From a virus, in the IMG/VR virus record IMGVR_UViG_3300042292_000345, positions 1-64,000 of that record: DNA of 64,000 nt. One strand, 5' to 3'. The position numbers were made by a program, and so were the translations under genes. This document shows, one piece after another, positions 1 to 59,736 of this stretch; the stretch's first letter is position 1; each line of letters opens with the position of its first letter. The notes below the pieces were generated by a model. The model saw only the letters and a list, made by a program, of their open reading frames with translations. It was not told the DNA's origin and ran no database searches.

Positions 1-266
1 TGTAGGTATAAATAGAATTAATACTTATGCAGGTACTTTCGGCACAGTGGATAGTCCAGCTATAAGTATCCCTGCAAGTATACCTAGTCTATCTATTAGT
101 AGACCTATTTATACTACTATAACAGATGCTTATGTAGGTATAAATAAAGTCAATACTTATGCAGGTACTTTCGGCACAGTGGATAGTCCAGCTATAAGTA
201 TCCCTGCAAGTATACCTAGCCTATCTATTAGTAGACCTATTTATACTACTATAACAGATGCTTATG
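1..266 (+). repeat. 132-bp in-frame tandem repeat, at least 2 near-identical copies
   Basis: 1-132 and 133-264 differ at only a few positions (e.g. agaatt/aaagtc, agt/agc). The period is 44 codons. Confidence 0.95.
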
Positions 267-2437: not shown

Positions 2438-3985
2438 ATGTATAAATCTGTTGCTAGTCCTAACGCATCTTATTTGCTTCATTCAAAGTTGTGGGCTAAA
2501 AATAGAGCTATGTGTGAGGGTGAAGCAGCAGTTAAGCGGCTTGATGAACAGGTTAATATAGATAATCTATTAATTCCTTTTTCACCTAGCATGTCTCTCG
2601 ATCAATATTTATTTTATAAAGCTGAAGCAGAACTTCCAGGAGTTACTTCAGAATTCGCTAAGATGCTAGTAGGTGGCTTACTAAGAAAACAGCCAGTACT
2701 TGAATTACCTGCTAGCGTTCCTGAAGAGGCTACTGAATGGCTCCTCAACAATTTTGGTAGAGATGATTCATCTTTAGTCAGCTTTATGGATGAAGTCTTA
2801 TGGGAGGAAATTCAAACTTCTAGAGCATGGATTATGGTAGATTACCCTTCTATATCTGAAGCTCAGTTTGAAAATCTATCACCTGAAGAACAAGCCAAGC
2901 TTAAACCATACCCTATCACGCATAAAGCAGAGTCTGTTATTAACTGGAAGACTGAAGTTACATGGGAAGGTAAAACTAAACTTACTATGGTAATTATTAG
3001 ATCTCTGGTAGAAAAAGTATCAGTTGATGATGAATTCCATCCTGTTCTGGTAGACACTGTATGGGTTCATGATCTTGCACCTAATTATAGAATACGTAAA
3101 TATGAATCTCAAATGCCTAGTAATGAGACACCAGACGTTCATAAAGATCGTATCAAGCCTGCCAAAGATGATGCGCCTAGATATACTTTAGTAGAAACTA
3201 TTGATTCTATTAAAGCATTTGGCATGCCTCTGGATAGTATTCCTGCATGGCCTCTTAATGGTTCTATACCTATTATGCCGCCTATGCTAACACCTATTGT
3301 AGATAAAGAAGTCTCTTTATACAATAAGATGAGTAGAAGAAATCATTTATTATATGGTGCAGCTACTTATACTCCTATTATTATGTCTGACATGACTGAT
3401 GAGGAATTTGAGAACATAGTAGATTCAGGATTAGGTTCTTGGATTAGGTTAAGACAGGGTGATACTGCAGATATCTTAAAGACACCTACAGAAGCTCTTG
3501 GTAATATGGATGTTACTATTAAAGCAACTATCGATGAGCTTGCCAGACTTGGAGTGCGGATGTTATCACCTGAGAATGAACAGTCAGGTGTTGCTTTAGA
3601 GATCCGTAACGCAGCTCAAACAGCTAAGCTAGGTACTCTTAATAATAAGATTAGCAGTACTATGAAAGCTGTATTTAGCTTTATGATATTCTGGCGATAT
3701 AATATACAAGTACCTCCTTGTGATATTCATTTCATTTTATCTGCTGATTTTGATCCTGTCCCATTAGGTGCTGACTGGTTACGTCTAGCTACTGAATGGT
3801 ATGAGAAAGGATTAATTCCAAGATCTATTTGGCTACAATTACTTAAATCAAATGACATGATTGATCCTTCGTACGATGATAAAGAAGGTCAATTAGAGAT
3901 TAATGCCGATCAGATGATTATTACACCTGTTCAGCAAAATGATCAATACCTTCAAGGTATGCAACAACAAGAACAAGGATTCTAA
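2438..3985 (+). CDS. Portal protein (DUF4055/SPP1-like)
   Basis: 515 aa at the start of the head module. The SGVALEIR motif, PYPITHKAESVINW and the acidic C-terminus resemble siphovirus portals. Confidence 0.85.
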   Translation: MYKSVASPNASYLLHSKLWAKNRAMCEGEAAVKRLDEQVNIDNLLIPFSPSMSLDQYLFYKAEAELPGVTSEFAKMLVGGLLRKQPVLELPASVPEEATEWLLNNFGRDDSSLVSFMDEVLWEEIQTSRAWIMVDYPSISEAQFENLSPEEQAKLKPYPITHKAESVINWKTEVTWEGKTKLTMVIIRSLVEKVSVDDEFHPVLVDTVWVHDLAPNYRIRKYESQMPSNETPDVHKDRIKPAKDDAPRYTLVETIDSIKAFGMPLDSIPAWPLNGSIPIMPPMLTPIVDKEVSLYNKMSRRNHLLYGAATYTPIIMSDMTDEEFENIVDSGLGSWIRLRQGDTADILKTPTEALGNMDVTIKATIDELARLGVRMLSPENEQSGVALEIRNAAQTAKLGTLNNKISSTMKAVFSFMIFWRYNIQVPPCDIHFILSADFDPVPLGADWLRLATEWYEKGLIPRSIWLQLLKSNDMIDPSYDDKEGQLEINADQMIITPVQQNDQYLQGMQQQEQGF

Positions 3986-3986
3986 A

Positions 3987-4199
3987 ATGGCTAAGCGTGG
4001 CAATAAGAATGCTGCTGGTCCACATAAAAAGACTGCTTCATTTGTAGTTGGAGGATTTGTATCTGGAATGCTACATGCGCCTAAGCATAATCAAAGATCT
4101 ATGATAGCATACGCTAGTAAGTCCACAGCAGGGCTAAGAGCATACAAAGTTGGTGCTGCTGTAAGAAAAGCTTCAGGTGCTAATTTATTCTTAAAGTAA
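3987..4199 (+). CDS. Small basic protein with N-terminal GNKNA motif
   Basis: ATG3987 lies 1 nt after the portal stop (MAKRGNKNAAGPHKK...). 70 aa, K/R-rich, with no acidic residues. Confidence 0.6.
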   Translation: MAKRGNKNAAGPHKKTASFVVGGFVSGMLHAPKHNQRSMIAYASKSTAGLRAYKVGAAVRKASGANLFLK

Positions 4200-4215
4200 C
4201 AAACAAGGTAGAGTT

Positions 4216-7200
4216 ATGAATTTAAATACAGAACTTTATGATAACCTCATTCATAGAGCAGCAATGCTAAGACTATTCGAAAGAAGAGTATCAGGCAAAG
4301 TAGATATAGTGCTAAATGATCATACAGATAGGTTGGACAAAATAATTCGTAACTCTGATCTTACTGTAGTAGGTCAAAGAAAGCTTAAAGAAAGGATTGA
4401 TATTGAGTCAACAGGCTCTTTTAGACAAGCATTTAATGTATCTAAAAGTAGTTTACTAGATCTGGTTGCAGATCAGCTTTCTTTTACCTATCAGAAAGTA
4501 GAAGCAAAAGTAGGAAAGATTTGGAGAACTGAAAGACCTGCTAAACGAGTATCAGAAGAAATTGTATTACAGAATCCTTTGTACAGTAATCAGACGTTAG
4601 CTCAAGGTTGGGCTGGAATATCTAAAAGTGAACGTATTAGGTTGGACTTAATTATACGTAAAGGTATTGCAGATGGCTTATCAATAGATGAAATAGCTGT
4701 ATTAGTACGGAAAGGACATCTACATGATATTACTAGAAACCAATCAAGAGCGCTGGTTACTACTGCTGCTACGTCTGTCGTTGCTCAAGCAGATCATCAG
4801 ATTTATAAAGCAAATGAAAAAGCTCTTCAAGGCTATCAGTATATTGCAGTATTAGATGCTAGAACAACTCCTTTATGTGCTCATCGAGATGGTCATGTGT
4901 ATCCTATTAGCGATACTGAGCATCTTCCTCCAGCTCATTGGAGATGTAGATCTACTACTGTTCCTGTCTTTAAGTCTTGGAGTGACATAGCCAGTCTAGA
5001 AAATATAGCTCAAGTCAGAAGAGAAAATATTAGTAATCTAACAGAAAAGCAGAAAGCTTACTATGATGGTATGACTCCTTTAAAAGAATCATATAACGAT
5101 TGGCTACTGCGACAACCTAAAGACATACAATTAGCTCATTTAGGTGACTACAATAAAGTAGAGTTGTTTAATAAGAATCAACTTACTGTTGATCAATTTA
5201 CAAATCCTGAAGGTAATACATTAGGTATAAGAGAATTACGTCAGCTAACTGATAGTACTTATGCGCTACCTAATGATACCCAGAAGTTTGCAAATGCTAA
5301 AGCAAAGTTAGATGCAATGCAATTATATGCATCAACTCCTGATAGTTTTATCAATGATAAGAAACTCACTCAGACTCTATTAGATTATTATCTATTGCAG
5401 AGTGGAGAGTTAGATGGTACTTTATCTCTTACAAATTATCGTGGAACTCTAATACATACTAAGAAAGCTACTAAAAATAGAGTGTTGAATACATTACCAA
5501 CAGAGGATCAAATGATATTTAATCCTATGACAGGTAGATATGAAGACTCTAGAATGTATCAGCCTAGTATTGGTGCATTAAGTAATAATCTTAGACTAGT
5601 AGAAGAATCTACAGATCTGAAAGATAAAGACAAACTATTCATTAATAGTTTTGAAAGATCACTCTCTGAAAAGATGAGTGTTAATGAGAGAGCTGTTGTT
5701 GTAGATAATCTACGTAATATATTCTCCAGATTTAGACGTAATGGAGAAGTATGGGGGAACTTTAAAGCTGTTAGTCAATCTCAGATTAAGTTTGATGTAA
5801 TGAATGTATCTGATACTATCGAAACACAGATTAGAAAAGATTCTGACCCGCTAAAAAAACTTCTTCAAGACAACTATATCGATCCAGTACTAGGTCCAGT
5901 GCAATTACAAAAACTCCACGATACCTTCCATGATAATATAAGATTCATGAATAAGTGGGAAGATAAGGTAGCACCTAAAATCGCTAGAGAGCTAAGAGGC
6001 TTCTTTGATCTTGCAATTCCCTTTAAGATTCGTGATAGGCTTACTGAAGTTAATATTCAAAAATTCTATCTGAAATTAGCAAAGAGACTTGCACTTGCTG
6101 ATACACCTGACAGAGATCAATTAGCTGTCACTATTGGCAGAGACCTCTATAATGCTGCTAATTTTAATGGTACTAGAAAAGATTGGTATAACGTTGGTTT
6201 AGAAATAATAAATGCTAATAATAGTATATTTAAAGTAGAGACATTTGGGGTTCAAAAGAGACGAATGAAATCTAGACTGTCAGGTCAATATTTTGGACCA
6301 TATTATGATACATTAGCATACAATATTCGCATAACAGATCCTAGAATTCAAGAGTATGCTCAAACAGTACGTAAGGTAGACCTTGGATTACGTGTTAGTG
6401 TAGTTAACGATGATAATAGACTTATATTCAAAGAAGGCTATAAGACATACTTTATGAAATCTAAATTTGGATTAGAAGATACTAGAATACCTATTACAAG
6501 TACTAGTAGTTTTTCTGATTTTCCAGAAGATTTTGTAGATGAGAATATGAAAGATGCACTCGAATGGGCATCAAAAGCTAGATATCGCATTGATGGCGAC
6601 TTCTACGATTTTACTCAGAAGTTATTATATTTTGTAGATGACAGAGGTAATGCTAAAAAGTATGATGCACTTAATGAATATAAACATTATATTAGTTCAC
6701 GTGGAGATGCTTATGAACGCTTTAAGGCGATGGAATGGCTACGTAAAAGCAATGACTCTTTTTCTAATCATCCTTTCATTGACCACAGGGCTCGTATTTA
6801 TGATAGGGGTCTTATTAGCCCTCAGTCTGGCGAATCCTTTAGACCTTACCTTAATACTGAAATAGAGAAACCATTAGGTGAGGATGGCTTTAAGAACTTC
6901 AAAGATCAGATAGGTGCCTTTATGGGTGGGCTAAATGACGTATTTGAAGGTAGATATAACTCACTATCCTTTACTGGTAGACAGAAGATTGCTGATAAAC
7001 TCTGGCCTGAGATGGTAGATATTGGTAATAAGATGCTAAGAGCAAAACCTGCTGATATTCGATTTATCTTAGAGTCTGAAATGGTCCAGTCAGTAGAAGG
7101 TGAGGAACTTGGTAAGTTTTTTAGATTTGCTATTGAAGCTGCTAAATTAGATAATCATATCAAATCTGGGGGTACACTTGACAAGTATATGACAGCACTT

Positions 7201-8940
7201 GCATTAGAGCAAGATGCATCATCATCGGGTGCTCAGATTATTGCCCTAACTACTAAAAATAAACAGCTAGCAGAACTCTCTAATGTAGTTCCTACTAATC
7301 AGAAAAGACGGCTATATGATGAGATTGCAGCATCTACTTATAATGATCCTAGATTCAAAGTAATGAATGAACGACTAGGATTATCTGAAAAAGATCTTAG
7401 AAAAGCTGCTAAAGCTCAGAACATGGTTACTTTCTATGGTGCTGGTGAACGTACTGGCATTCTTAATGTAGAAGGCAAATTAGCTAAGATTCTTGACAAA
7501 ACTGATAGTACGTTAGTAGTAAAAGCTTCTGATAGAGATAAAGTACTTAGTGAGATATCTGCTAGAGCTGCTAGGTATCAGAGATTTGATGAAGAAACTT
7601 ATAATGAATTAATGGTTCTCAGAGCTAATGTTAAAGATATCTTTAATAAAGGATTAGAACCAGGTGATGAAATCATGGAACAGCTTTATTTCTTAGAACC
7701 TAAAACAAAAGAATTAGTTGAAAAGATGACTGCTAGTTATGATATGGTAGTTACCCCAAAAGACTTTCAAGCTATTGCAAAAATTATGAGTGAGCATTTA
7801 GCTGAACAAGTACCTATTCTAAAAGACTTCACTAAGTATTTTGGTAGGCTAGCAGAGGATTTCTTAACTACAGCAAAACCTAGCGGTAGTGATTTAGATT
7901 GGAAGGTAATAGGTAAGATTCCTTTTCTGGGTACTAGACAAAAGACAATAGGTTCTGAACTTGTTGCTGGTAGTAGAGAAAGATCACCTACAATTGATTC
8001 ATTAGTTCTTGGCAATCTAGATAAGAAACTTAAAGCTAAATTTAATTCTAGACTAAGCGAGATATTAGGTATCAAGGCGGATGAGCCAATTACTGAAAAG
8101 ATTCTGAAAAGGTTTACTTGGTATAGACCTGATGGGATTCTATCTGATCTATTATATGGCGTACACACGCCTGATGACAGAACTATTGGCAAGAATGTAA
8201 TACGATTTAAATATACATTTATAAATGATAAATTTAGTATTACTCAACCGTTAAAGATCTATAGGGCAATAGATGTCAGTATACTATTTAATCCTAAGAT
8301 GCCTAAGAAGTGGACTAATGTTCCATGGGTTAACTTTGATGGTAAAACATTAGAACAAAACTTTACTCAATCATTTGAAGAAAGATTGAATTACAAAGAT
8401 AAAGATGGTAATTGGGTTACTAATATTTTACAAGTACCTCAAAAGACATCATCTACTGGATGGGAAGAATGGGCAAATGATCCAGGAAATATTAATGACA
8501 TTGCCGATGCAACTAAAGCTAGAACTGCCTATGCTGTTAATGGCAATCACTCTAATGATGCAACATTAGTTAAAAACTTTCATTTATGGGGCAGAGATAA
8601 TAACATTGCCACATCAACGATTCATGATGCTTTCTTTGCCAATGCTGCTGATATGCTTATAGCAAGAAAGGGTCTACGGGAGCTTTATGCAAATGCTCTC
8701 AATGCTGGTTCAGTAGTGAAAACGCTGGATGAGATGAAAGCAAGAGGTCTCCCTCAAGAGCTTTACGATGCTTATCTTAAAGAGGGCATTGAAAAGGGCA
8801 TTATCCCTGTTGCAGGGAAATCTGTCGTGGGTGGGAAAGTCCTGACAGAAAATGATATATTGAAAATAGATGACATATTAGCACCTATACCAGATCCTAG
8901 CAAATTCAGTAATGATGTTGGCTTCTATGGTGTAGGTTAA
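4216..8940 (+). CDS. Minor head protein (SPP1 gp7/MuF) fused to a T7-like single-subunit RNA polymerase; putative virion RNAP
   Basis: MuF signature YQYIAVLDARTTPLC...PPAHWRCRST (4834-4956). RNAP motifs: DHRARIY (6781), motif A DASSSGAQ (7213), motif B RKAAKAQNMVTFYG (7399-7440), NGNHSNDA (~8540) and motif C IHDAF (8620). Located between portal and scaffold. Confidence 0.92.
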   Translation: MNLNTELYDNLIHRAAMLRLFERRVSGKVDIVLNDHTDRLDKIIRNSDLTVVGQRKLKERIDIESTGSFRQAFNVSKSSLLDLVADQLSFTYQKVEAKVGKIWRTERPAKRVSEEIVLQNPLYSNQTLAQGWAGISKSERIRLDLIIRKGIADGLSIDEIAVLVRKGHLHDITRNQSRALVTTAATSVVAQADHQIYKANEKALQGYQYIAVLDARTTPLCAHRDGHVYPISDTEHLPPAHWRCRSTTVPVFKSWSDIASLENIAQVRRENISNLTEKQKAYYDGMTPLKESYNDWLLRQPKDIQLAHLGDYNKVELFNKNQLTVDQFTNPEGNTLGIRELRQLTDSTYALPNDTQKFANAKAKLDAMQLYASTPDSFINDKKLTQTLLDYYLLQSGELDGTLSLTNYRGTLIHTKKATKNRVLNTLPTEDQMIFNPMTGRYEDSRMYQPSIGALSNNLRLVEESTDLKDKDKLFINSFERSLSEKMSVNERAVVVDNLRNIFSRFRRNGEVWGNFKAVSQSQIKFDVMNVSDTIETQIRKDSDPLKKLLQDNYIDPVLGPVQLQKLHDTFHDNIRFMNKWEDKVAPKIARELRGFFDLAIPFKIRDRLTEVNIQKFYLKLAKRLALADTPDRDQLAVTIGRDLYNAANFNGTRKDWYNVGLEIINANNSIFKVETFGVQKRRMKSRLSGQYFGPYYDTLAYNIRITDPRIQEYAQTVRKVDLGLRVSVVNDDNRLIFKEGYKTYFMKSKFGLEDTRIPITSTSSFSDFPEDFVDENMKDALEWASKARYRIDGDFYDFTQKLLYFVDDRGNAKKYDALNEYKHYISSRGDAYERFKAMEWLRKSNDSFSNHPFIDHRARIYDRGLISPQSGESFRPYLNTEIEKPLGEDGFKNFKDQIGAFMGGLNDVFEGRYNSLSFTGRQKIADKLWPEMVDIGNKMLRAKPADIRFILESEMVQSVEGEELGKFFRFAIEAAKLDNHIKSGGTLDKYMTALALEQDASSSGAQIIALTTKNKQLAELSNVVPTNQKRRLYDEIAASTYNDPRFKVMNERLGLSEKDLRKAAKAQNMVTFYGAGERTGILNVEGKLAKILDKTDSTLVVKASDRDKVLSEISARAARYQRFDEETYNELMVLRANVKDIFNKGLEPGDEIMEQLYFLEPKTKELVEKMTASYDMVVTPKDFQAIAKIMSEHLAEQVPILKDFTKYFGRLAEDFLTTAKPSGSDLDWKVIGKIPFLGTRQKTIGSELVAGSRERSPTIDSLVLGNLDKKLKAKFNSRLSEILGIKADEPITEKILKRFTWYRPDGILSDLLYGVHTPDDRTIGKNVIRFKYTFINDKFSITQPLKIYRAIDVSILFNPKMPKKWTNVPWVNFDGKTLEQNFTQSFEERLNYKDKDGNWVTNILQVPQKTSSTGWEEWANDPGNINDIADATKARTAYAVNGNHSNDATLVKNFHLWGRDNNIATSTIHDAFFANAADMLIARKGLRELYANALNAGSVVKTLDEMKARGLPQELYDAYLKEGIEKGIIPVAGKSVVGGKVLTENDILKIDDILAPIPDPSKFSNDVGFYGVG

Positions 8941-8948
8941 TTTAATCA

Positions 8949-8984
8949 GTTAGATAGCTGTGCTACTAACATAGGCTGTGCCTA
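8949..8984 (+). promoter_or_regulatory. Twin hairpins with identical C-TGT-G loop directly upstream of the scaffold RBS; putative translational operator
   Basis: GTTAG-a-TAGC-TGT-GCTA-CTAAC (8949-8970) and TAGGC-TGT-GCCTA (8972-8984), followed by AAGGA. Confidence 0.5.
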
Positions 8985-8996
8985 AAGGAATTTAAA

Positions 8997-9665
8997 ATGA
9001 GTACCGAAAATCCAAATCCAGATAATACTGATAACACTAATAATGTACCTCCTGCACCTGCGGGAACTACTAATGGTGTTAGCATGACTCCTGAACAATT
9101 GGAAAAGTTAATATCAGATAGACTTAATCCAATTAAAGAGAAGTTAGATAATGCATTTGTCGAGAGAGATGCAGCTAAGACCAAGTTAGCAGAATTAGAA
9201 AAAGAAAAGCAAGAACAGGAAATTAAACGTCTTCAAGAAGAGGGCAAACATAAAGAAGCTTATGAGATTCAGTTAGCTGAAGAAAGAGCTAAATTAGCTC
9301 GATTAGAAAAGCAAAACACTGAACTAGCACGTGATGCATCTTTAAGAACTCTGTTAGGTAAATTTACTTTCAGAAGTGATAGCGCATCTAACATGGCTTA
9401 TAACTCTATTATATCTGAATTAAGACAGAATGAGAAAGGTGAATGGGTTCATGCGTCTGGTACAACATTAGCAGACTATGTTAAAGTATTTTCTGAAAAT
9501 GAAGAAAATTCATTCTTGTTTAAACCTAAAGTATCTTCTGGTGGAGGTCTTGACGGAAACAATAATCCACCTCCTGTTGGCGAATATAAAAGCATCTACG
9601 AGATGAGTCAAGAGGAAGTATTAAAAAGAATCACTGAAGGCAAAGCGTTGCCTAAAAGGAAATAA
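8997..9665 (+). CDS. Capsid scaffolding protein
   Basis: Low-complexity N/P-rich N-terminus, long charged coiled coil and FLFK...SSGGG C-terminal motif; immediately upstream of the major capsid gene. Confidence 0.85.
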   Translation: MSTENPNPDNTDNTNNVPPAPAGTTNGVSMTPEQLEKLISDRLNPIKEKLDNAFVERDAAKTKLAELEKEKQEQEIKRLQEEGKHKEAYEIQLAEERAKLARLEKQNTELARDASLRTLLGKFTFRSDSASNMAYNSIISELRQNEKGEWVHASGTTLADYVKVFSENEENSFLFKPKVSSGGGLDGNNNPPPVGEYKSIYEMSQEEVLKRITEGKALPKRK

Positions 9666-9668: not shown

Positions 9669-10889
9669 ATGACTGTAAAAACAAATCTAGCCGGTGCTAC
9701 TAACTTCGTATTACAAGAAGCAATCAGTGCTTACTCTGACGAAGCTTATACTACTGCTCGTAAATTATCAAGCACTGGCATCGTAGGAACTAACCCACAA
9801 ATTGACACTAGCACAGAAACCTTTATTGGTCAAATGCGTTGGTTCAAACCATTAAATCCAGTAGTTAACGTTGCATCACTAACAGATGCTGCTGACGGTA
9901 ACAAAACTAGCTATGCATCTGACTACTTGACATATATTAAAACTGTTCGTACTCACGGTGCTAACAAAGTTAATATGCAATCAGTAGTTACTCAACAAGA
10001 TGGCTTAGCTAAAATCGGTCGTGACTTTGGTGAAACTCGTGCTAAAGACGAACATGATGCTATCCTTGCAGTACTAAAAGGTGTTGCAGTATCTGAATTA
10101 TTGAATGGTGCAGCAGCTGGTAGTGGTGCAGCAGGTTGGGGTGGTCAAACATTTGATAGCGATCCTGAAGAAAAACGTTACGGTTTCTATGTAGACCTAG
10201 GTGCTAACAAACCAGTATTACCATCAGGCGGCTCATCAGGTACTAACTATGCTATTCAAGGTGCTGCTCGTGCAGAAGGCTTCTTAAATGCATTTGGTAT
10301 GGCATTCAAAGATTATGAACCAGCTTGGGCTTACTTAGTAATCTCACCTGAAACATTAGCATCTTTCCGTTCTGCTAACTTTGTAGATGAAACTACTGTA
10401 ACAGATGGTATGGTAGAATTCAATACTATTTTTAGTGGTAAATTCAGATTAGTTGTAACTCGTGCTAACCAATCATTAGCAACTGCTGACTTGACTAAAA
10501 TCAATACAGGTGCTGGTACAGTTGGTGGCGGTGCAGTTGCAGCTGACGTTGCAGGTACTAAAACATCATTTATTGTATTGCCAGGTGCATTAGCAATGGA
10601 AGGTTTGTCAGTTCCTGATGAAACTGAAATTTACCGTGATGCTAATAAATATAAAGGTGGTGGTACAACTGACATTTGGTATCGTTGGGGTTATGTATTA
10701 GCACCTGCAGGCTACAACTGGGCTGGTCCAGTAGATGCATTCCCATCTAACACTGATTACACTTCAGTAATGGATGGAAGTACATTGAAAACTCTTTCAG
10801 CTGCTACTATTGCAACTTCAAAAGGTGTTTGGGAACGTAAAGCTCATTCAGCACTTTCATTAGGTATCTTACCTGTATTCCACGCTTAA
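9669..10889 (+). CDS. Major capsid protein
   Basis: 406 aa after the scaffold, with high-expression codon bias (CGT, GCT, AAC). The YKGGGTTDIWYRWGYVLAPAGYNW motif resembles siphovirus coat proteins. Confidence 0.88.
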   Translation: MTVKTNLAGATNFVLQEAISAYSDEAYTTARKLSSTGIVGTNPQIDTSTETFIGQMRWFKPLNPVVNVASLTDAADGNKTSYASDYLTYIKTVRTHGANKVNMQSVVTQQDGLAKIGRDFGETRAKDEHDAILAVLKGVAVSELLNGAAAGSGAAGWGGQTFDSDPEEKRYGFYVDLGANKPVLPSGGSSGTNYAIQGAARAEGFLNAFGMAFKDYEPAWAYLVISPETLASFRSANFVDETTVTDGMVEFNTIFSGKFRLVVTRANQSLATADLTKINTGAGTVGGGAVAADVAGTKTSFIVLPGALAMEGLSVPDETEIYRDANKYKGGGTTDIWYRWGYVLAPAGYNWAGPVDAFPSNTDYTSVMDGSTLKTLSAATIATSKGVWERKAHSALSLGILPVFHA

Positions 10890-11716: not shown

Positions 11717-12095
11717 ATTCACTGAAGTTGAAGATAGTATCTTTGCTATATTTGCAGGTGAAGAGTGGGATGCTGAAGGTATTCCTACATTCCCTAATAA
11801 CTATAATCCTACTAGTAATCTCGAAGAATTTATTAGAGTTGATGTAATACCTTCAGGAATGGGAATTAATATTAATTCACTTTCAGGCTTGATTATTATA
11901 GAAATATTTACTCCAGCAGGAAAGGGTCCAAGAAGAGCTACTGAAATAGCTGATATATTAGATAAATATTTTGCAGGTAAGAGTAGCGCATCTACTCAAT
12001 TCATGCAAAGCAATTTTAGATCTGTCGGAAATGAGACAGCATACTATCATTGCTCTTACTCAATTCAATTTAACTTTTATAAAAGTTTTAATTAA
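11709..12095 (+). CDS. Tail terminator protein (putative)
   Basis: SGLIIIEIFTPAGKGPRRATEIADIL pattern; directly before the tail tube genes. Confidence 0.7.
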   Translation: MGKFTEVEDSIFAIFAGEEWDAEGIPTFPNNYNPTSNLEEFIRVDVIPSGMGININSLSGLIIIEIFTPAGKGPRRATEIADILDKYFAGKSSASTQFMQSNFRSVGNETAYYHCSYSIQFNFYKSFN

Positions 12096-12105
12096 GGAAA
12101 ACAAA

Positions 12106-12765
12106 ATGGCTCATATTACATCTATTGGGGCAGCAATGTTCACTAGCTTAGCTGTTACTAAAGCAGCTGCTACTCTTGCTGATGTCCCTAAAACAGCTGC
12201 TGCAGCTACTAAGTTACATGGCGCTACTGGCGCTGCTGCTGGTTTCTTCTCTACTGACGGCACTAGTGGCGCAGCTGGTGGTACATTCTTCCGCATTCCT
12301 AATGTTAAAGAATTCCCTGCAATGGGTATTCCAGCTAACATTACTAACGTTCCTGAATACGGTTCTGCGCTAGCACTGCAAGTGCAATCACAAGCTGACG
12401 CACCTACTTTAGAAATTACCCTAAACTATGTACCATCTCAGTGGGATAATAACACTTTGTTCAGTAATGCTGGTAATCCTACAGTTGGTGGTGATATCCA
12501 CTTATTCAGATTTACAGTTTTAGCTGAAGATGTGAAAAGCTGGAATAGTGGCTTCCACAGAACCGCTACTAATGCTGCAGCATCTGGTAATACTTCAGTT
12601 ACATCGCTTGTTGAAAATTCAAGCTATTACTTCTTGGGTAAACTAGAAGCGTTAGAAGTGACCCCTAACTTGACTGATGCATTAACTGCTAAGCTAACAA
12701 TTTCTGTTAGATCTAGTATCTATGGTGCATTCACTCAAGAAACTGCAACTTACACAGTATCCTAA
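12106..12765 (+). CDS. Major tail tube protein, copy 1
   Basis: Start at ATG12106 after AAGGA (MAHITSIGAAMF). VKEFPAMGIPANITNVPEYG...QADAPTLEITLNYVP motif. Confidence 0.82.
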   Translation: MAHITSIGAAMFTSLAVTKAAATLADVPKTAAAATKLHGATGAAAGFFSTDGTSGAAGGTFFRIPNVKEFPAMGIPANITNVPEYGSALALQVQSQADAPTLEITLNYVPSQWDNNTLFSNAGNPTVGGDIHLFRFTVLAEDVKSWNSGFHRTATNAAASGNTSVTSLVENSSYYFLGKLEALEVTPNLTDALTAKLTISVRSSIYGAFTQETATYTVS

Positions 12766-12777: not shown

Positions 12778-13596
12778 ATGGCACATATTAATCAGTTAGG
12801 TTCTGCTATTTTCTCAGACCTTTCAATTTCATTATTTTCTACCAAAACTATGCTTGGTTCTAGCGCTGCTACTTATGACCAACTTCTAGATGTATTGTCA
12901 AAAATAAAAGATGGTGCATTAGCTGTTGGCGGGACAGGAGCAGAAAATTTACCCACTAGTATTACAAGTCTTGTAGGCTGGGGTGGCTTGTTTCAAAACA
13001 ATTTAAGTACTATTACCTCTACTGCTATCACTGGTGGTACACTTATTGCTGACGCAAAAGCATATGTACGTCTAACACATGTTAAAGAATTCCCTGCAAT
13101 GGGAACACCTGCTAATATTGTTAATGTACCTATTTACGGTCGTAAAAATTCTTTACAAATCCAAGGCCAGGCTGACTCTCCAACAATGGAGATTACAGTC
13201 AACTATGTACCTACTATGTGGGCAGGTGGAGAATTAAAAGGTGGGATTGATACTTCGCCTGTTTCTACAAGTATCAAAATAGGCGATGGAAAAGTTTATT
13301 TAATGAGATTCACTCTCTTAAATAAAGAGCCAAAAGGTTACAATGCAAGTTTAAGAGCTACTTCAACTTCAGTATCTAATGTTAATGATGAAGATTCTAT
13401 TGGTGAAGCAGTAACCAATCTTAAAGCTGGCAATGCAGAAGTTCAAAACTCAAGCTTTTACTTCTTGGGTAAAATTGAAACTATTGAAGTAACACCATCT
13501 CTAAGTGATGCAACTACTGCTAAAATTACGATTGCTATGCAATCAGATTTAGTAGGTGCATATACTATTAACTACGGAACGGATCTTCAAGCTTAA
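12778..13596 (+). CDS. Major tail tube protein, copy 2 (paralogue)
   Basis: MAHINQLGSAIF start, VKEFPAMGTPANIVNVPIYG...QADSPTMEITVNYVP and NSSFYFLGK motifs shared with copy 1. Confidence 0.82.
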   Translation: MAHINQLGSAIFSDLSISLFSTKTMLGSSAATYDQLLDVLSKIKDGALAVGGTGAENLPTSITSLVGWGGLFQNNLSTITSTAITGGTLIADAKAYVRLTHVKEFPAMGTPANIVNVPIYGRKNSLQIQGQADSPTMEITVNYVPTMWAGGELKGGIDTSPVSTSIKIGDGKVYLMRFTLLNKEPKGYNASLRATSTSVSNVNDEDSIGEAVTNLKAGNAEVQNSSFYFLGKIETIEVTPSLSDATTAKITIAMQSDLVGAYTINYGTDLQA

Positions 13597-14852: not shown

Positions 14853-14865
14853 ATTGGAGACAAAT

Positions 14866-17800
14866 ATGTCAGGAATAGCTATAGCAGTAGAAGCTAAGGT
14901 AGACAAAGCGCAAAGAGACCTTCAACTATTAAATCATACAGTTTCAAATATATCTACTGAAGTTAAAAAGGCTACCTCTAGTTTCTCTTTGATGTCTAAG
15001 TCTATTGTAGGTTTAGGTGGTATTGCTTTAATTTTACCCACGATCAAAAGCATTGATGCTACTTTTACAAATATTGAAAACAAAATAAAAACCATAACAG
15101 GTGCAACTGAAAGATTTAATACCGCATTTTCTGGGGTTTCATCAATCGCAAGAGACACTCGTTCTACACTAGCAGATACTACTGATTCTTTCTTTAGGAT
15201 CTCATCAGCTATTTCAGAAACTAGTCTAGATATGGATAAGGTTCTGGTAGCGACAAGAGCAATACAATCAGGTGCTATTCTTGCTGGCGGTAATCTTGAT
15301 GGATATCGTGCAGCCGTTATGCAACTAGGGCAAGGACTAGGTAGTGGTGCTTTAAGAGGTGAGGAGTTCAACTCTGTTATCGAGCAAGCTTTACCTATTG
15401 CAAAAGCTATTGGAGATTCTTTAGGGGTGTCTGTAGGAACTTTAAGAAGAATGGCAAATGCAGGCAAGCTTACATCAGATCTTGTATTTAACGCACTAAT
15501 AATGCAAGCCGGTGCTTTACAAAAGAAAGTAAGCTCTATGGATATTACTATAGAGCAGAGTATGCAAAGTTTAAAAGAGACATTAAAATATGTATTTAAC
15601 TCTTTTGATAAAGCAGTAAATATGTCTGGCTTTCTTAGTAGAGGGATAGTAGCACTTTCAGGTAAGCTAAGTTTACTAGCAGATTCTGCATTTAATATGG
15701 GGACTGATATAAGCTCCGTATTAAATAGTTTATTTGCTTCAAAAGATCTTAAAAGAATTGCAGATATAGCAACAACTATGCTATACCCTTTCTATTTTGC
15801 TGCTAAGCAATTTGGAAAACAATTTATGTTATTTTTGAATGCTAGAGGTATAATCTCATTCATGAATAAAATATTTGTTGAGACTACATCAGCAGCAATG
15901 ATGAGTATAACAAAACTTGGAACAAAGCTATATACTCTTGGTGTTATTTTACGTGCAATAGACCAGCAAGGCTTTCTACAAGGGAAATTAGCCGTATTTG
16001 ATGCATTTGGATACGCTGTAAAATCTTTCTTTGTAATGTTTCATTTTTATGTACAACGTGTAGTAAATCCTATTAATCAAGATATTTATGCAATAGGCAA
16101 TTCTATAGATCAAACATTTAATGTTATACCTGGTAAGGTAATTAAATTATTTGCAAATTTCACAGCACATATTTCTCATTTTATACAAGGTTTTATCGGA
16201 TTATATGATACTTCTATAGGTCGTCTTTTTAAAAATCTAGCAGAAGCTTATGAGGATTTTGTAGCCGACTTTAATAATAGTGTATTTGGTTTTAGTCCCT
16301 TAAGTAAGAAACTTGAAAAATATAAAGAAATATTAGCAAGAGTTGTTCTTAAAAGTATCCCAGAAGTATTGATAAGAGCTGCAGGAGCTATCAAAGCTGC
16401 CCTTATAGGTTTTATTAAGCCTTTTAAATCTGTTGAAGAAAGAATTTCAGCAAGCAGTAGAGTACTTCCTAAAGTATCTTTAAGCTTTGAAGAAATGGCA
16501 ACAGGAGTTAATAAGGCTGGCAAAATATTAGTAACTGGTGCAGAGAATGTAAAAGACTTTTTTATGATGCTAGTATCAACTGATTTTAGCAAACTAAGTA
16601 GTTCTTTTAGCTTTGATGGATTAAAGAAAAATATTTCTAATTTTGTAAAGTATATTTCTAACACTAGCCTACTATCATCAGTTAAGTCTTTTGTAAAAGA
16701 TCTATTACCATCTGATATACTATCTAAAAGTGCTAGTGTATTCTCAAATACACTTCAAAAAATTATTGTAAAAATCAGAGACGTTCTTGGTTCTTTATTT
16801 TCTATGGATAAGATTAAAGGGCAATTGACAACATTTTTGCCAGTAATACAGAGCGGTCTGTCTTCTCTTTTATCTACTCTTACAGATGCTGCAAGTATTG
16901 TTTATAGTAAAGTCAGTAGCTTTATTGACTCGTTTAAACAGTTAGAAATGGTATCTGCAGTAACTGATAAAGTTGAAAAAGTATTTAATTTTATTAAAAA
17001 GAAACTAGAAGGCACATCTCTGGATGTTGATTTCAGTGCTATAAAAGATAAAGTAAAATCTTTATTTAAAGATAGCATTAGTAGTGATATTACATCATCT
17101 ATGGCATCATCATCTTTTAAATTTTCAGATTTTAAACATATTGCTGTAAAAGCACTAGATAGCATCGTAGACGGCTTCCATAATATTGTGGCTGTAAGTA
17201 AGAAACTTTTATTTACAAAACCAAAAGAAGCACTCGATTATATATTAGAAAAACTATCTATTGTAAAACAGAAAATAGGCGAATTTGCTACTAGTATAGG
17301 TATCCCTAGTATCGATCTTAGTGTAAATTTAGAACCTATTAAAAAAGCTATAGGCGTTGCTAAAGAATTTATTGGTAGTATGGTTGCCGATCTTAGTGAT
17401 GTTTTTGGCACTAATTTTACAAATCTTAATCTTGATACATCTAGTTTTTCTAGTTTTAAAGCAAGTATTCTAAAAGCCTTTGATGAAGTCTCATCAATAT
17501 TTAATAAAAATCTTGCAGTGCTATTTGCAAAACCAATGACATTCCATGTGTCTGCAATAGCACTTGGGGAGATGTTCCCTGAAAATAAAGTGACTGAATT
17601 TTTATCTAAACAGTTACGTGCAGTAGCGGTAAGAGGCTGGAAAGACTTTATTATTGCTTGGTCAAATACTGCAAATGCTGGAGACTTATCTGAAAGAGTT
17701 GGTGAATTTGCTAGTACAACGATTGTCAATGCAATAAAGAATTATACATACGCCCTACCACAATTGGCAGGCGCATTAATGAGCATTGGTTCGAGTATAT

Positions 17801-44492: not shown

Positions 44493-44750
44493 ATGTTAAT
44501 CAATGAATTAAAACTAGCTAATAAATCTGAAAGATGTTCTTTAGTAATATCTTTATTAGATAAGAACAATACCCCTTGGAGATCCTCTAACAGAGGAATC
44601 CATATCACAGTAGAACGTGAACATTATAAATTAGATATATGGCCTACTACTCTCAAATTTAGGATAACAGAATATCCGTTAGGTGAAGGAAATACTTTCA
44701 GTGGTGCTGAAGAATTCTTAGAAAATCTGGAAAAGTATTTGCGCAAATAA
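44493..44750 (+). CDS. Hypothetical protein
   Basis: AAGGA RBS; ORF track. Confidence 0.7.
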   Translation: MLINELKLANKSERCSLVISLLDKNNTPWRSSNRGIHITVEREHYKLDIWPTTLKFRITEYPLGEGNTFSGAEEFLENLEKYLRK

Positions 44751-44779
44751 TGGTATCTTATATGAATACCATAAGGTAT
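44742..44779 (+). promoter_or_regulatory. Putative phage RNAP promoter P1
   Basis: CGCAAA-taatg-GTATCTTATATGAA-TACCATAAGGTAT, upstream of an RBS. Confidence 0.78.
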
Positions 44780-45877: not shown

Positions 45878-45915
45878 CGCAAAAACAAGTATCTTATATG
45901 AATACCATAAGGTAT
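45878..45915 (+). promoter_or_regulatory. Putative phage RNAP promoter P2
   Basis: CGCAAA-aacaa-GTATCTTATATGAA-TACCATAAGGTAT; 27 consecutive nt identical to P1. Confidence 0.8.
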
Positions 45916-45950
45916 CTCAATAACTATAATTAACTTTTTGGAGTATTATC

Positions 45951-46121
45951 ATGTTTACAGTTGAAATCAACAGAAAAGCACTTGAATCACAATTAGAGCT
46001 AGCGCAAGCAGCTCTAGATGGCTTAAGAGCAGATGACGTCTTTAAAATGCTGCCAGGTTATTCAGTAATGGTAGCACGTAAAGAACGTGAAATTGAAGAA
46101 TTAAAAATTCGTTTAGCTTAA
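45951..46121 (+). CDS. Small coiled-coil protein (56 aa, not in ORF track)
   Basis: GGAG RBS; MFTVEINRKALESQLELAQAALDGLRADDVFKMLPGYSVMVARKEREIEELKIRLA. Confidence 0.7.
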   Translation: MFTVEINRKALESQLELAQAALDGLRADDVFKMLPGYSVMVARKEREIEELKIRLA

Positions 46122-46138
46122 TTATTTGGAGAGCAGTC

Positions 46139-46426: not shown

Positions 46427-46433
46427 ACACAAC

Positions 46434-46489
46434 CCAACCTATTAGAGGCCCTTAGGCTCCTAATAGGTTGGTATTTAATTTTTTTTTTT
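46434..46489 (+). terminator. Long hairpin with an 11-T tract
   Basis: CCAACCTATTAG...CTAATAGGTTGG, then TATTTAA and T11. Confidence 0.8.
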
Positions 46490-46511
46490 CTCCACAACTA
46501 AAGGAGGTAAC

Positions 46512-46880: not shown

Positions 46881-46888
46881 GAGGATAT

Positions 46889-47023: not shown

Positions 47024-47063
47024 CACTAACAAAGACAGAGGACTGTCTATTTTGGAGGCATTT

Positions 47064-47399: not shown

Positions 47400-47449
47400 A
47401 CTAACTCTATGAGGCGGTGCAGCTCATAGGGTCTTGCAGTATTTTTCAT

Positions 47450-47486: not shown

Positions 47487-47495
47487 AGGAATTAT

Positions 47496-47647: not shown

Positions 47648-49714
47648 ATGGAAGTAGCAACGATAGAAACGCTGTATCTGTATACAAGACCAAAAAGAAG
47701 CGGTGATCCAATTCTATTTGCAGAGCTTATTACAGCTATGGGTAGGGCACTTTCAGATTCTAGATGTTCGACTGAAAGAGCCAGAATTGGTGCTAACTTT
47801 ATTTACAATCTAGAAGAGCAGTGTATTCTAGAACTTCAACTGAATCAAGATAATCAATATATAATTAAGATTATCAATGATGCATGGATCTTAGATATAA
47901 TGAGGAAGTGTGTAAAGATCCATCACAGTACTTTTCCTTCTCTACTACCATATGATGACTGGGATAAATTTTATCATAGTACAGGTGCTAAACTAATAAA
48001 AAGTAAAGCACCAGAATTGAAAAAGATAAGCCCTAATACTCATCCTATTGTATTTGATAGTATTAACAGGTCTCAAAGTGTTGGTTGGAATATCAATAAA
48101 AGAATTCTACCAATAGCTGAGTGGTGTCTGAAAAGACAAGAAGCGGCTTTTAGTGATATCTGGAATCAAGTAAAGAAAGAAGCTAAAGCAACAAAGTCTA
48201 GAGAGTCTAAGACAATCATTCAGATTGCTAAAGAGTTTATTAATTCAACTTTTTATCATCTGTATTATCTTGACTTCCGTGGCAGGTGTTATCCAACTAC
48301 TGCATACCTTCACGAGCAAGGTTCAGATCTAGCAAAGGGTTTATTACTCAGAGCTGATAAGAAAAGAATCGGTGAAGGTGGTTATAGATGGTTATGTATC
48401 AGTATAGCATCTAACTGGGCAGGTGCAAGTGGTCGTCCAGATGGTGCAAAGACTGATAAGATTCCTATGTTAGAAAGGTATCAATGGACTCAAGCAAATC
48501 TAGATGTGTTGCTTAGCTATGCCAGAGATCCTCAGAAGAACAAAGGATGGATGGATGCTGATAAGTGTTGGCAGTTTCTAGCAGCTTGTATAGAGCTAAA
48601 GAAAATACATGATACTGTATTATATCATGGAGCAAATATTTATGATTATGAAAGTCATCTAGAATGTTTTATAGATGGCTCAACTAATGGCTCACAGCAT
48701 CTGGCAGCACTTACTAGAGATGAAGTAACAGCACCATATGTTAACTTAGTACCTAGTAGACTGCCTGGTGATTTATATACGTATGTTGCAAACTCTATAT
48801 GGAAATTTGTCAGTGTTACGTTAGCTGATCTAGATCCCAATCTAGTAGCTGCAGCAGAAGTATTTGTAGATACTATAATTGAAATGAAAGCACAAGTTAG
48901 AAACACTGAACCTAGAAGTGAACTAAGAAAAGCGCATTCAGAGAAATTACAGTATTATAGGAATCAATATCACTATCTAGAAGAGACAGCAGCTTTTGTC
49001 TTCTGGAATAGAGTTAAAGATTTAAAAGAACGAAGAAAGATCGTTAAACGTGGTGTAATGACTTTACCATATGGCGGGACTTCTTACGGTCTTGGAGAGC
49101 AGGTTCTAGAAGACTCTAAAAAGCATGGAATAGATCTCTTAAAAGATCTTGATATGAAATGGGGCACTTTCATGGGTAGACTTATCTTTATGAACTGTAA
49201 AGATTCATTAAAGAATCCTATGAAACTTCTAGATATATTTAGTAAAGCAGGAGTGAAGGCTGAAAAAAGAGATGAGTATCTTTCTTGGACAGTACCTGTA
49301 ACTAAGTTTCCTGTAATCCAGCATTACGATGAAGGTACAATAAAGAAAGTGTTAATTATGTATGGGGGTAGAGAATTAAAGATATCTATCTATCACTCTG
49401 AGTTTCCTACTAAAGCTAAAAGGAAGCAAGGGCAAGGAGCAGCACCTAATATTGTTCATTCACTTGATGCAGCACATCTAATGCTTACTAAAGTAACTTG
49501 TCCATTTACAGTAACAACTATTCACGATTCTTATGGATGTTTGTTAGCTGATATGGATGATTTATTTAGAATAGTTAGAGAGACATTTGTAGATCTTTAT
49601 AGAGTAAATCCATTAGATTATTTGATGGAAGAAATTCAAGGAGATATGAGTGGTTTAGAAATCGGTGCGCTAGATATCAATAGTGTACTAAAATCAGAAT
49701 ATTGCTTTAGTTAA
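47648..49714 (+). CDS. T7-like single-subunit DNA-directed RNA polymerase (compact, 688 aa)
   Basis: DFRGRCY (48272), motif A DGSTNGSQH (48674), motif B RKIVKRGVMTLPYG (49034), PNIVHSLDA (49445) and motif C IHDSY (49520). GGAGG RBS. Confidence 0.95.
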   Translation: MEVATIETLYLYTRPKRSGDPILFAELITAMGRALSDSRCSTERARIGANFIYNLEEQCILELQLNQDNQYIIKIINDAWILDIMRKCVKIHHSTFPSLLPYDDWDKFYHSTGAKLIKSKAPELKKISPNTHPIVFDSINRSQSVGWNINKRILPIAEWCLKRQEAAFSDIWNQVKKEAKATKSRESKTIIQIAKEFINSTFYHLYYLDFRGRCYPTTAYLHEQGSDLAKGLLLRADKKRIGEGGYRWLCISIASNWAGASGRPDGAKTDKIPMLERYQWTQANLDVLLSYARDPQKNKGWMDADKCWQFLAACIELKKIHDTVLYHGANIYDYESHLECFIDGSTNGSQHLAALTRDEVTAPYVNLVPSRLPGDLYTYVANSIWKFVSVTLADLDPNLVAAAEVFVDTIIEMKAQVRNTEPRSELRKAHSEKLQYYRNQYHYLEETAAFVFWNRVKDLKERRKIVKRGVMTLPYGGTSYGLGEQVLEDSKKHGIDLLKDLDMKWGTFMGRLIFMNCKDSLKNPMKLLDIFSKAGVKAEKRDEYLSWTVPVTKFPVIQHYDEGTIKKVLIMYGGRELKISIYHSEFPTKAKRKQGQGAAPNIVHSLDAAHLMLTKVTCPFTVTTIHDSYGCLLADMDDLFRIVRETFVDLYRVNPLDYLMEEIQGDMSGLEIGALDINSVLKSEYCFS

Positions 49715-59711: not shown

Positions 59712-59736
59712 CGCAAAAGGGGGTATCTTATATGAA
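59712..59736 (+). promoter_or_regulatory. Putative phage RNAP promoter P3
   Basis: CGCAAA-agggg-GTATCTTATATGAA; same spacing as P1 and P2. Confidence 0.75.

Follow-up and report, generated by a model that had tools for sequence, protein, structure and literature searches.

A conserved fusion of a MuF minor head protein with a T7-type RNA polymerase, a candidate virion polymerase of aquatic siphophages

The question raised by this locus is whether a phage can load its own RNA polymerase (RNAP) into the capsid by joining it to a portal-associated head protein. The window, the whole stretch of 64,000 nt that was analyzed, derives from the genome of a 77-kb siphophage from lake water, in which an earlier note had described one uninterrupted ORF of 1574 aa between the portal and scaffold genes. 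We verified the ORF and its neighbors, and the data support a position of the fusion gene within an SPP1-like head module consisting of portal, MuF, scaffold and major capsid protein:

2438..3985, + strand, portal protein (phrog_145, E 1e-51; DUF4055; synteny in ~60 loci), presumably the partner on which MuF docks
4216..8940, + strand, MuF-RNAP fusion gene, uninterrupted ORF without a stop, 1574 aa
4216..5475, + strand, MuF / SPP1 gp7-like minor head module, aa 1 to ~420 (PF04233; phrog_241 over aa 1-386)
5476..5898, + strand, junction, aa ~421-561, a flexible stretch (aa ~420-445) followed by a helical region leading into the polymerase
5899..8937, + strand, complete T7/mitochondrial-type single-subunit RNAP, aa ~562-1574 (AlphaFold model, structural alignment, family profile)
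8997..9665, + strand, scaffolding protein (phrog_206; synteny)
9669..10889, + strand, major head protein (phrog_247)

Continuity across the domain border, a check proposed in the earlier note, was confirmed by contigs from independent lake-water metagenome runs. A single 5872-nt contig from run X5 spans positions 3965-9100 with 27 substitutions and 0 gaps, and contigs from runs X7 and X6 span 3900-6899 and 5182-9100, respectively. The natural variants listed within the fusion ORF (n = 31) comprise 24 synonymous and 7 non-synonymous changes and show that the ORF is under purifying selection. Elsewhere in the record, the annotated "direct terminal repeat" is merely a 127-nt overlap within a 132-nt tandem repeat.

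Phage_Mu_F and RNA_pol were both found on the one chain above the Pfam cut-offs, as the proposed HMM search had anticipated. Phage_Mu_F (PF04233) covers aa 147-248 (nt 4654-4959; E 1.5e-11, 45.4 bits against a cut-off of 29.6). All residues of the signature attributed to this module are present in order (D214-x-R216-T217-T218-x-x-C221 ... P238-P239-x-H241-x-x-C244-R245-S246), and the signature columns are invariant among 24 diverse relatives. Profile, signature and the portal-adjoining position in the head module place the N-terminal part in the SPP1 gp7 / Phage Mu F family, and it is the sole MuF in the genome. The junction has pLDDT values of 55-62 at model residues 31-50 and of 80-95 thereafter, and the alignment to T7 RNAP begins at model residue ~173. 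A methionine within the junction with an upstream GAGG (M433) is not conserved (6/49 relatives).

RNA_pol (PF00940) matches aa 978-1098 (E 1e-9, 38 bits against a cut-off of 22), with a second piece at aa ~1426-1510; a PF00940 match was also obtained in 19 of 24 diverse relatives. While a single-sequence phmmer comparison with T7 RNAP yielded only E 0.3, a family profile of MuF-RNAP matched T7 RNAP with E 4e-19; N4 mini-vRNAP gave no match to this profile at E 0.01. The AlphaFold model of the polymerase part (pLDDT 83.8, pTM 0.82) superposes on T7 RNAP, so that the structure prediction suggested earlier came out in favor of the assignment: Z was 28 against T7 residues 33-883 (28.0 with rmsd 3.5 over 529 residues for model 181-1185 against T7 38-883 (VIA)), 28.1 against POLRMT 403-1230 and 16-21 (~20) against N4 mini-vRNAP, with a Foldseek probability of 1.0 for the fold match. 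The model thus supports a complete T7-type fold, with the N-terminal domain, the specificity-loop region (four predicted beta strands) and the C-terminal tail all included. Profile, right-hand fold (palm, fingers, thumb and N-terminal domain) and catalytic residues identify a member of the single-subunit T7-like RNAPs. Every polymerase motif named in the earlier note (DHRARIY, A, B, HSND and C) was recovered in the order given:

6781..6801, + strand, D-x-R-x-R-x-Y motif, aa 856-862 (D856-H-R858-A-R860-I-Y862), equivalent to T7 DWRGRVY
7204..7239, + strand, motif A, aa 997-1008, catalytic D1000 (49/49 relatives), aligned with T7 D537
7399..7440, + strand, motif B, R1062-x3-K1066-x7-Y1074-G1075 (K1066 48/48, Y1074 43/44)
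8314..8448, + strand, specificity-loop-equivalent beta region, aa 1367-1411 (HMM alignment, T7 residues ~723-762)
8548..8559, + strand, H-S-N-D, aa 1445-1448, equivalent to T7 H784-S-Q-D (D1448 43/43, H1445 40/43)
8620..8628, + strand, motif C, I-H1470-D1471 (D1471 43/43), aligned with T7 H811-D812
8926..8937, + strand, C-terminal tail Y-G-V-G, conserved (...YG[IV]G(P) in relatives)

The region of the first motif aligns with T7 residues 416-486 by HMM; R860 is found in 49/49 relatives, and D856, R858 and Y862 in 45/49. The FAFA C-terminus of T7 RNAP reaches the active site, which offers an analogy for the Y-G-V-G tail. All catalytic residues are kept among relatives down to 22-36% identity and, judged by these residues, the fused polymerase is apparently active.

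The survey of homologs that had been recommended showed both fusion and synteny to be conserved. PF04233 and PF00940 occur together on one protein in more than 100 clusters at 90% identity, on contigs of 60-90 kb, and the gene order around the fusion is the same in ~60 IMG/VR loci. Wherever the contig reaches, the portal gene is followed by those for MuF-RNAP, scaffold, major capsid protein and Ad1, in this order, and MuF is present in all 24 diverse full-length relatives. Nearly all relatives' loci carry the fusion as a single ORF, and in none is the domain border split. In the cultured Naomviridae phage DSS3_VP1, gp108 is such a fusion with every motif kept. We conclude that the MuF-RNAP fusion is real and conserved. 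In relatives, the ORF is interrupted solely by group I introns that carry HNH genes, and as a new observation these lie exactly at polymerase motifs: at motif B (query aa 1067/1068 and 1073/1074) and at HSND (aa 1443/1444, in locus L022). Homing elements usually target conserved, essential sequence. Compared with the relative G002, MuF-RNAP is 65% identical, the major capsid protein 67% and a second RNA polymerase 46%.

This second polymerase and three candidate promoters lie far from the head module:

44742..44766, + strand, promoter candidate P1 (CGCAAA box, 5-nt spacer, GTATCTTATATGAA)
45878..45902, + strand, promoter candidate P2 (copy of CGCAAA-N5-GTATCTTATATGAA)
47648..49714, + strand, second, canonical T7-like RNAP (RNAP2), 688 aa (PF00940 E 2e-72; T7 RNAP E 2e-48)
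59712..59736, + strand, promoter candidate P3 (copy of CGCAAA-N5-GTATCTTATATGAA)

RNAP2 is located in the replication module, is presumed to be the non-virion polymerase, and is only remote kin of the fused enzyme (26% identity over 84 aa). The presence of a separate, unfused RNAP in the genome fits a polymerase relay. The 14-mer GTATCTTATATGAA is the only multi-copy word common to this phage and G002; it occurs in exactly three copies each in this phage, G002 and a further relative (G005), always on the gene strand, with two or three copies per genome 1-4 kb upstream of RNAP2. The specificity-loop region of the fused RNAP is ~80% conserved without indels relative to the two relatives sharing the 14-mer, whereas that of RNAP2 shows indels of 3, 9 and 12 aa between the same genomes. 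Both the three-copy 14-mer and this difference between the loop regions are new observations. Loop conservation is the one ground on which we assign the 14-mer to the fused enzyme and not to RNAP2, and the fused enzyme is thereby favored as its putative reader. Between the promoter candidates and RNAP2, a hairpin with a T11 element is present in this phage (47475) and in G002 (45790), so RNAP2 would need read-through or another promoter. A second promoter class for RNAP2 was sought and not found; the same holds for a many-copy late promoter class tying late genes to RNAP2 and for a consistent hairpin at the 14-mer candidate promoters.

Since the RNAP is joined to the genome's only MuF, it probably travels in the capsid as the phage's own transcription enzyme. 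We consider it probable that MuF-RNAP is packaged via the portal, ejected and used to start early transcription before RNAP2 takes over. The fusion gene would yield one polypeptide whose N-terminal SPP1 gp7/MuF module docks on the portal during procapsid assembly, carrying the catalytically intact C-terminal RNAP into the head in few copies. The idea that MuF docks on the portal and acts as a packaging tag derives from homology to SPP1 gp7 (PMC6316719), and ejection and polymerase activity are predictions. At the next infection, the fusion protein would exit with or ahead of the DNA, and the RNAP would transcribe a few early units from phage-specific double-stranded promoters, for which the three copies of CGCAAA-N5-GTATCTTATATGAA are the best candidates; RNAP2, made in the cell, would then take over. 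The tape measure protein has 3960 aa with only TMP_3 and SLT domains and, by the usual rule of 0.15 nm per residue, the tail should be roughly half a micrometer long. As counterpoints, a 180-kDa protein must unfold and pass through this very long tail in order to be ejected, and, as the gene lies in the late operon, a cytoplasmic pool formed late in infection could also act there.

Several other explanations of the locus were weighed. That two genes were joined by an assembly or gene-calling artefact has a negligible probability, and nothing was found in its favor: although the overlap mistaken for a terminal repeat indicates that the assembly is imperfect elsewhere, contigs of other samples cross the junction and hundreds of relatives share the identical single-ORF layout, by which we regard an artefact as ruled out. 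It is also unlikely that the fusion, made late, has its polymerase act within the cell that produces it, for instance on late genes or close to heads under assembly, and is packaged only incidentally or not ejected in a usable form. Its place in the late structural operon, the missing link between late genes and RNAP2 through a many-copy promoter class, and the demanding exit through a long tail would all suit such a role. However, the genome already has a free RNAP, SPP1 offers a precedent for capsid targeting (PMC6316719), and every relative down to 22% identity retains the covalent link with its only MuF, the border never being split. This unbroken linkage is hard to explain unless co-localization with the portal matters.

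We regard it as rather improbable that a host or unrecognized phage protease cuts the flexible junction (aa ~420-445), so that only MuF is packaged and the RNAP acts as a free late enzyme. The low-confidence linker at model residues 31-50 would permit this, but no cleavage motif is conserved in the junction sequence, and a fusion kept only to be undone by cleavage would be less economical than two genes. Prohead proteases of the S78, ClpP, S77 and S49 families were looked for in the genome and none was found; the head module is SPP1-like, and SPP1 is not known to have a maturation protease. A catalytically dead polymerase domain that only binds DNA or holds a DNA end at the portal is very unlikely. 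The domain is very divergent, as the single-sequence comparison with T7 illustrates, and DNA binding by SPP1 gp7 appears in the title of a reference cited in PMC6316719. Nevertheless, the family keeps both catalytic Asp residues, Lys, Tyr and Gly of motif B, HSxD and the C-terminal tail (near-)invariant, homing introns sit at the catalytic motifs, and the natural variants indicate purifying selection.

The impression that this architecture was uncharacterized held up, as our literature search found no paper describing a MuF-RNAP fusion. A 2017 survey of polyvalent proteins reported virion RNAPs only in N4-like phages (PMC5512222). Virion RNAPs as a kind are already known. Beyond the main reading, and more as speculation than expectation, we can imagine MuF-RNAP remaining at the exit of the channel following ejection. 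There it would start at the three invariant GTATCTTATATGAA promoters on their way into the cell, help to pull the genome in by transcription (as in T7 and N4) and hand over to RNAP2, leaving the phage fully independent of host RNAP. On this reading, portal-docked delivery would represent a third route to a virion RNAP that evolved independently, shared by a large clade of aquatic siphophages with a global distribution, the dU-DNA Naomviridae among them.

Among known systems, T7 RNAP and POLRMT resemble the fused enzyme in their fold and N-terminal domain, in the specificity-loop region and in all catalytic motifs. Sequence identity is only ~17%, however, and the enzyme here has ~130 extra residues, including low-confidence insertions at aa ~1243-1267 and ~1327-1360; it also follows a head protein on the same chain, and its gene belongs to the structural operon.

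In SPP1, a few copies of gp7 attach to the portal and occur in both procapsids and virions (PMC6316719), and delivery into the host has been proposed for toxins fused to gp7-like C-termini (PMC6316719; PMC5512222). Our protein resembles SPP1 gp7, Mu gpF and the MuF polymorphic toxins in the N-terminal MuF with PPxHxxCRS, the portal-adjoining gene and, as in the toxins, a C-terminal enzymatic cargo. We rejected a polymorphic toxin because the C-terminal domain is an RNAP, a 1000-aa cargo that would serve the phage, and the next gene encodes the scaffold and no immunity protein. The ORFs that were scanned showed no sign of an integrase, and phages with MuF-RNAP look lytic.

N4 gp50 likewise holds a right-hand T7-family single-subunit RNAP inside a larger protein, which in N4 is a virion protein; its gene also lies among late genes, the enzyme is proposed to initiate early transcription, and a second T7-like RNAP acts later (presumed here). 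N4 has three early promoters, and here the 14-mer has three copies. However, N4 gp50 is a polyprotein of ~3500 aa that has, besides a central mini-vRNAP, N- and C-terminal domains of its own as well as a zincin-like peptidase domain (PMC5512222); it lacks MuF, and N4 (Schitoviridae) is a podovirus. Its promoters are DNA hairpins, whereas a T7-like specificity-loop region is kept here. An N4-like virion RNAP was rejected since only MuF and RNA_pol domains were found in the 1574 aa, and N4 mini-vRNAP was rejected as the closest relative, the structure being nearer to T7/POLRMT.

Thermus phage P23-45, correctly cited in the earlier note, carries a tape-measure-fused virion RNAP (gp96) and a non-virion RNAP (gp64) (PMC10770324). 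It is also a long-tailed siphovirus with a very long tape measure protein and a polymerase fused to a structural virion protein, and its virion RNAP transcribes pre-early genes including that of the second, non-virion RNAP. In P23-45, the RNAPs are of the two-barrel (cellular) type and the tape measure protein serves as carrier, whereas here the enzyme is of the T7 type and its carrier the portal-associated MuF.

The IMG/VR virus record measures 77,325 bp, and the window covers its first 64 kb; the + strand carries all long ORFs (ORF scan). The ORF of the MuF-RNAP fusion is free of stops over 1574 aa, and both of its halves were recognized by domain profiles. In Pfam, aa 147-248 matched Phage_Mu_F and aa 978-1098 matched RNA_pol (PF00940), each exceeding its curated cut-off, with a second RNA_pol piece near the C-terminus, and PHROGs assigned aa 1-386 to 'head morphogenesis' and aa 852-1084 to 'RNA polymerase'. 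The earlier note had claimed that MuF and a complete T7-type RNA polymerase share one chain; the two Pfam profiles confirm the shared chain, and every motif it had named was found where it had placed it. The gene lies in the following head and tail module:

2438-3985, +, portal
4216-8940, +, MuF-RNAP fusion
8997-9665, +, scaffold
9669-10889, +, major head protein
14854-26736, +, tape measure protein of 3960 aa (TMP_3 at aa 69-253, SLT at aa 2949-3046)

Adaptor Ad1, a tail terminator and a major tail protein are further neighbors, and the order portal, gp7, scaffold, capsid is that of SPP1. Two diverged major-tail-protein paralogues lie side by side at 11971-12765 and 12778-13596 (shared stretches of 62-67 nt, 70-81% identity). 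No tRNA was found in the window. The fusion is the sole MuF copy in the genome. A genome search for Peptidase_S78, ClpP, S77 and S49 proteases yielded none, and therefore nothing points to maturation cleavage. Complex prediction of the portal with MuF aa 1-390 gave a score of 0.12, which speaks neither for nor against binding. We also considered a conserved free polymerase product from an internal start, M433, which lies in the linker downstream of a GAGG, and rejected it because M433 is kept in only 6 of 49 sequences.

The same DNA is present in lake-water metagenomes from 24 studies. A single 5872-nt contig from an independent run spans 3965-9100 with 27 substitutions and zero gaps, and contigs from two more runs bridge the domain border, so that the border is crossed unbroken in independent lake samples. 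Among the 31 variants listed within the fusion ORF, 24 are synonymous. We conclude that the fusion ORF is not an artefact. From metatranscriptome run X24, only six or seven short pieces (151-184 nt) map to the gene, and these could derive from carried-over DNA. The 'direct terminal repeat' of the record (window 1-264, genome 76800-77325) comes from an overlap of 127 nt that falls within a coding tandem repeat of 132 nt (44 aa); it therefore marks closure of the assembly, not physical ends.

A word-indexed search returned more than 100 clusters at 90% identity (1520-1775 aa, both Pfam domains, contigs of 60-90 kb). An exhaustive search with aa 390-1574 against 1.84 billion representatives gave only 162 matches, the full-length ones measuring 1400-2070 aa, and each of the 24 diverse full-length members has Phage_Mu_F. 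Among 80 IMG/VR loci, the gene order is kept as portal, MuF-RNAP, scaffold, capsid, Ad1 as far as the contigs extend; nearly all of these loci hold the gene as a single ORF, and in none is it split between MuF and polymerase. Fusion and synteny are thus conserved. Shorter database proteins with PF00940 only (P0012, P0017, P0026 and others) may be contig-end or intron-split fragments. Ten loci (L076-L085) carry a homologous portal/MuF/scaffold/capsid module in which MuF is only 343-714 aa long and has no polymerase, and in some of them other genes, 4-5 kb in all, separate MuF from the portal. In a quick unrooted tree of the MuF domain, the five usable of these ten came out as a single clade at the end of a long branch, a pattern that one gain or one loss could explain.

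Full-length relatives in the phage database were limited to EBPR siphovirus 1 plus the roseophages DSS3_VP1 and DSS3_PM1 (Naomviridae), whose records name the gene 'head morphogenesis' or 'minor head protein-like'; annotation pipelines systematically apply the former name only. All MuF and polymerase motifs are kept in gp108 of DSS3_VP1. Neither the description of the Naomviridae (PMC8323127) nor a later paper treating them (PMC12669031) mentions an RNA polymerase. The same fusion occurs on JAOUJT010000001.1, a phage-sized contig (74,179 bp) assigned to a Gammaproteobacteria MAG. This binning and the window's strong ribosome-binding sites of the GGAG type hint weakly at a proteobacterial host.

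In some relatives the gene appeared to be split, the breaks lying within motif B and at the HSND motif (query aa 1067/1068, 1073/1074 and 1443/1444). Rfam identified group I introns (RF00028) at the break sites in three loci, with 53-79 bits against a cut-off of 50:

L018:7933-8203, group I intron
L022:13245-13483, group I intron
L022:15099-15362, group I intron
L015:3571-3770, group I intron

The ORFs within the interruptions are HNH endonucleases, and EBPR siphovirus 1 represents the same intron-interrupted case (gp47, HNH gp48, gp49). The 'split' fusion genes in the database are therefore intron-containing genes. Such homing elements usually occupy the most conserved parts of essential genes, and their placement at the polymerase motifs fits an active enzyme. 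Rfam found no family in the window, so the window's own copy of the fusion is without an intron. Some relatives (L032:6102-6554, also L018 and L021) have about 147 extra aa inserted in frame directly ahead of motif A; the insertion was considered as an intein, but it has no Pfam match and is not recognizable as one. Free-standing homing endonuclease genes were observed in the window phage itself: a SegE-like GIY-YIG gene at 54626-55081, between exonuclease and primase-helicase, and an HNH gene in a small-gene region at genome 67094-67987.

The polymerase half is strongly diverged. A single-sequence phmmer search of the PDB reached T7 RNAP at E 0.3 only, and a family profile built from 24 diverse relatives was needed to reach it (T7 RNAP, E 4e-19; mitochondrial RNAPs, E 3e-18; N4 RNAPII, E 3e-7); this profile did not match N4 mini-vRNAP at E 0.01. 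The AlphaFold model of aa 390-1574, based on an alignment of 49 sequences, has a pLDDT of 83.8 and a pTM of 0.82. Foldseek ranked POLRMT and T7 RNAP at the top with probability 1, and VIA-align scored T7 RNAP (model 173-1185 on T7 residues 33-883) and POLRMT at Z 28 each, N4 mini-vRNAP at Z 16-21 and N4 RNAPII at Z 14. These profile and fold matches show aa ~562-1574 to be a whole T7-type enzyme, including the N-terminal domain and a beta region aligned with the T7 specificity loop, and the structure prediction thereby bears out the completeness that the earlier note had read from the motifs. The stretch up to aa 561 is helical in the model, and aa ~420-445, of low model confidence, is probably a flexible linker. 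Catalytic residues persist in relatives at 22-36% identity (R860 49/49, D1000 49/49, K1066 48/48, Y1074 43/44, D1448 43/43, D1471 43/43), as does the C-terminus ...YG[IV]G(P).

The genome encodes a further polymerase:

47648-49714, +, second RNAP of 688 aa

This is a canonical T7-like RNAP (PF00940, E 2e-72; T7, E 2e-48), which aligns with the fused enzyme at 26% identity over 84 aa only. Its gene adjoins those for SSB, DNA polymerase A, exonuclease, primase-helicase, RNR and ligase; dCMP deaminase, ThyA and ThyX, looked for as a link to dU-DNA, were not found in the genome. DSS3_VP1 has the same polymerase pair. Compared with G002, a related 63.9-kb genome, MuF-RNAP is 65% identical, the capsid protein 67% and the second RNAP 46%. 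In G002 (45921-48500, L098) the match to the second RNAP gene falls into two pieces, separated at aa 476-486 by about 376 nt that may be another intron.

Only one repeated non-coding word of note was found, CGCAAA-N5-GTATCTTATATGAA, each copy 40-50 nt before a start codon:

44742, +, promoter candidate
45878, +, promoter candidate
59712, +, promoter candidate

It is the only multi-copy 11-mer common to the window phage and G002. The 14-mer GTATCTTATATGAA has exactly three exact copies in G002 and again exactly three in the 74-kb Gammaproteobacteria-MAG contig (MuF-RNAP 62% identical). Each of the three genomes has two or three of its copies 1-4 kb upstream of the gene for the second RNAP. By inspection, the motif bears no likeness to sigma-70 boxes. 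Between the three genomes, the specificity-loop region of the fused enzyme (aa 1367-1411) is free of indels and about 80% identical; the matching region of the second RNAP has indels of 3, 9 and 12 aa. Judging from sequence, we propose, at about even odds, that the fused enzyme would read this invariant motif; the three observations that follow temper this reading. An N4-like hairpin promoter at the 14-mer was not borne out, as RNAalifold gave no consensus hairpin and single folds after it were small, with z-scores of -0.2 to -3.2 that were not significant. Exact k-mers, words in common with G002 and 16-mers allowing 3 mismatches revealed no convincing second class of promoter.

Between the motifs and the second RNAP gene lies a hairpin followed by a T11 element. 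It belongs to seven uniform A-T11/12 tracts confined to the non-structural half, all with a ribosome-binding site within 2-15 nt downstream; in five, a hairpin ends a few bases before the tract:

window 46434-46490, tract with hairpin
window 47450-47487, tract with hairpin
window 60824-60884, tract with hairpin
genome 64392, tract with hairpin
genome 67072, tract with hairpin
genome 65580, tract with weak hairpin or none
genome 68630, tract with weak hairpin or none

One tract directly precedes the second RNAP gene in both the window phage and G002, and the distance from tract to gene is too short for a separate promoter. A non-coding, AT-rich stretch of 605 nt (genome 68250-68854; L006:8250-8854), in which TCTTTAAG / CTTTTAGA words recur, lies upstream of the terminase module and is a candidate origin, packaging or regulatory region. 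DSS3_VP1 carries a many-copy 23-mer, AATAGG[GT]T[GA]CGTTAAAGAGGGGGA, before genes of several modules, a candidate T7-style promoter; the window's phage has no many-copy class of this kind:

L005: 2332, 6580, 7408, 19202, 19237, 29396, 45925, 46392, 46551, copies of the DSS3_VP1 23-mer

The sequence data establish the fused architecture as intact and conserved and so support the interpretation of the earlier note in part; beyond this, we propose that MuF-RNAP would be packaged, ejected and active in transcription. If so, long-tailed phages would load a T7-type enzyme by means of an ordinary head-assembly adaptor, the MuF cargo idea would widen from toxins to the phage's own early machinery, and a compact, divergent T7-family polymerase would become available, its candidate promoter short and sharply defined. 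The 3960-aa tape measure protein, which contains TMP_3 and SLT only and no RNAP domain, points to a tail that may reach roughly half a micrometre, raising the question of how a 180-kDa protein passes through it. Lakes and oceans commonly yield this architecture, and roseophage DSS3_VP1, whose published descriptions name no polymerase in this gene, represents it in culture; the question is therefore directly testable.

To our knowledge, virion RNAPs occur in few phage lineages only (N4-like, crAss-like, P23-45, and the phiKZ/AR9 jumbo phages), each of which brought new transcription biology to light. A full-text search of papers readable without subscription found no description of a MuF-RNAP fusion. 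SPP1 virions without gp7 are only about 25% infectious, and toxins on gp7-like C-termini have been proposed to be delivered to the host (PMC6316719). A 2017 survey of polyvalent proteins treated MuF as an effector carrier and reported virion RNAPs only in N4-like phages (PMC5512222). In the siphovirus P23-45, a virion RNAP fused to a structural protein transcribes the pre-early genes, including that of a second, non-virion RNAP (PMC10770324).
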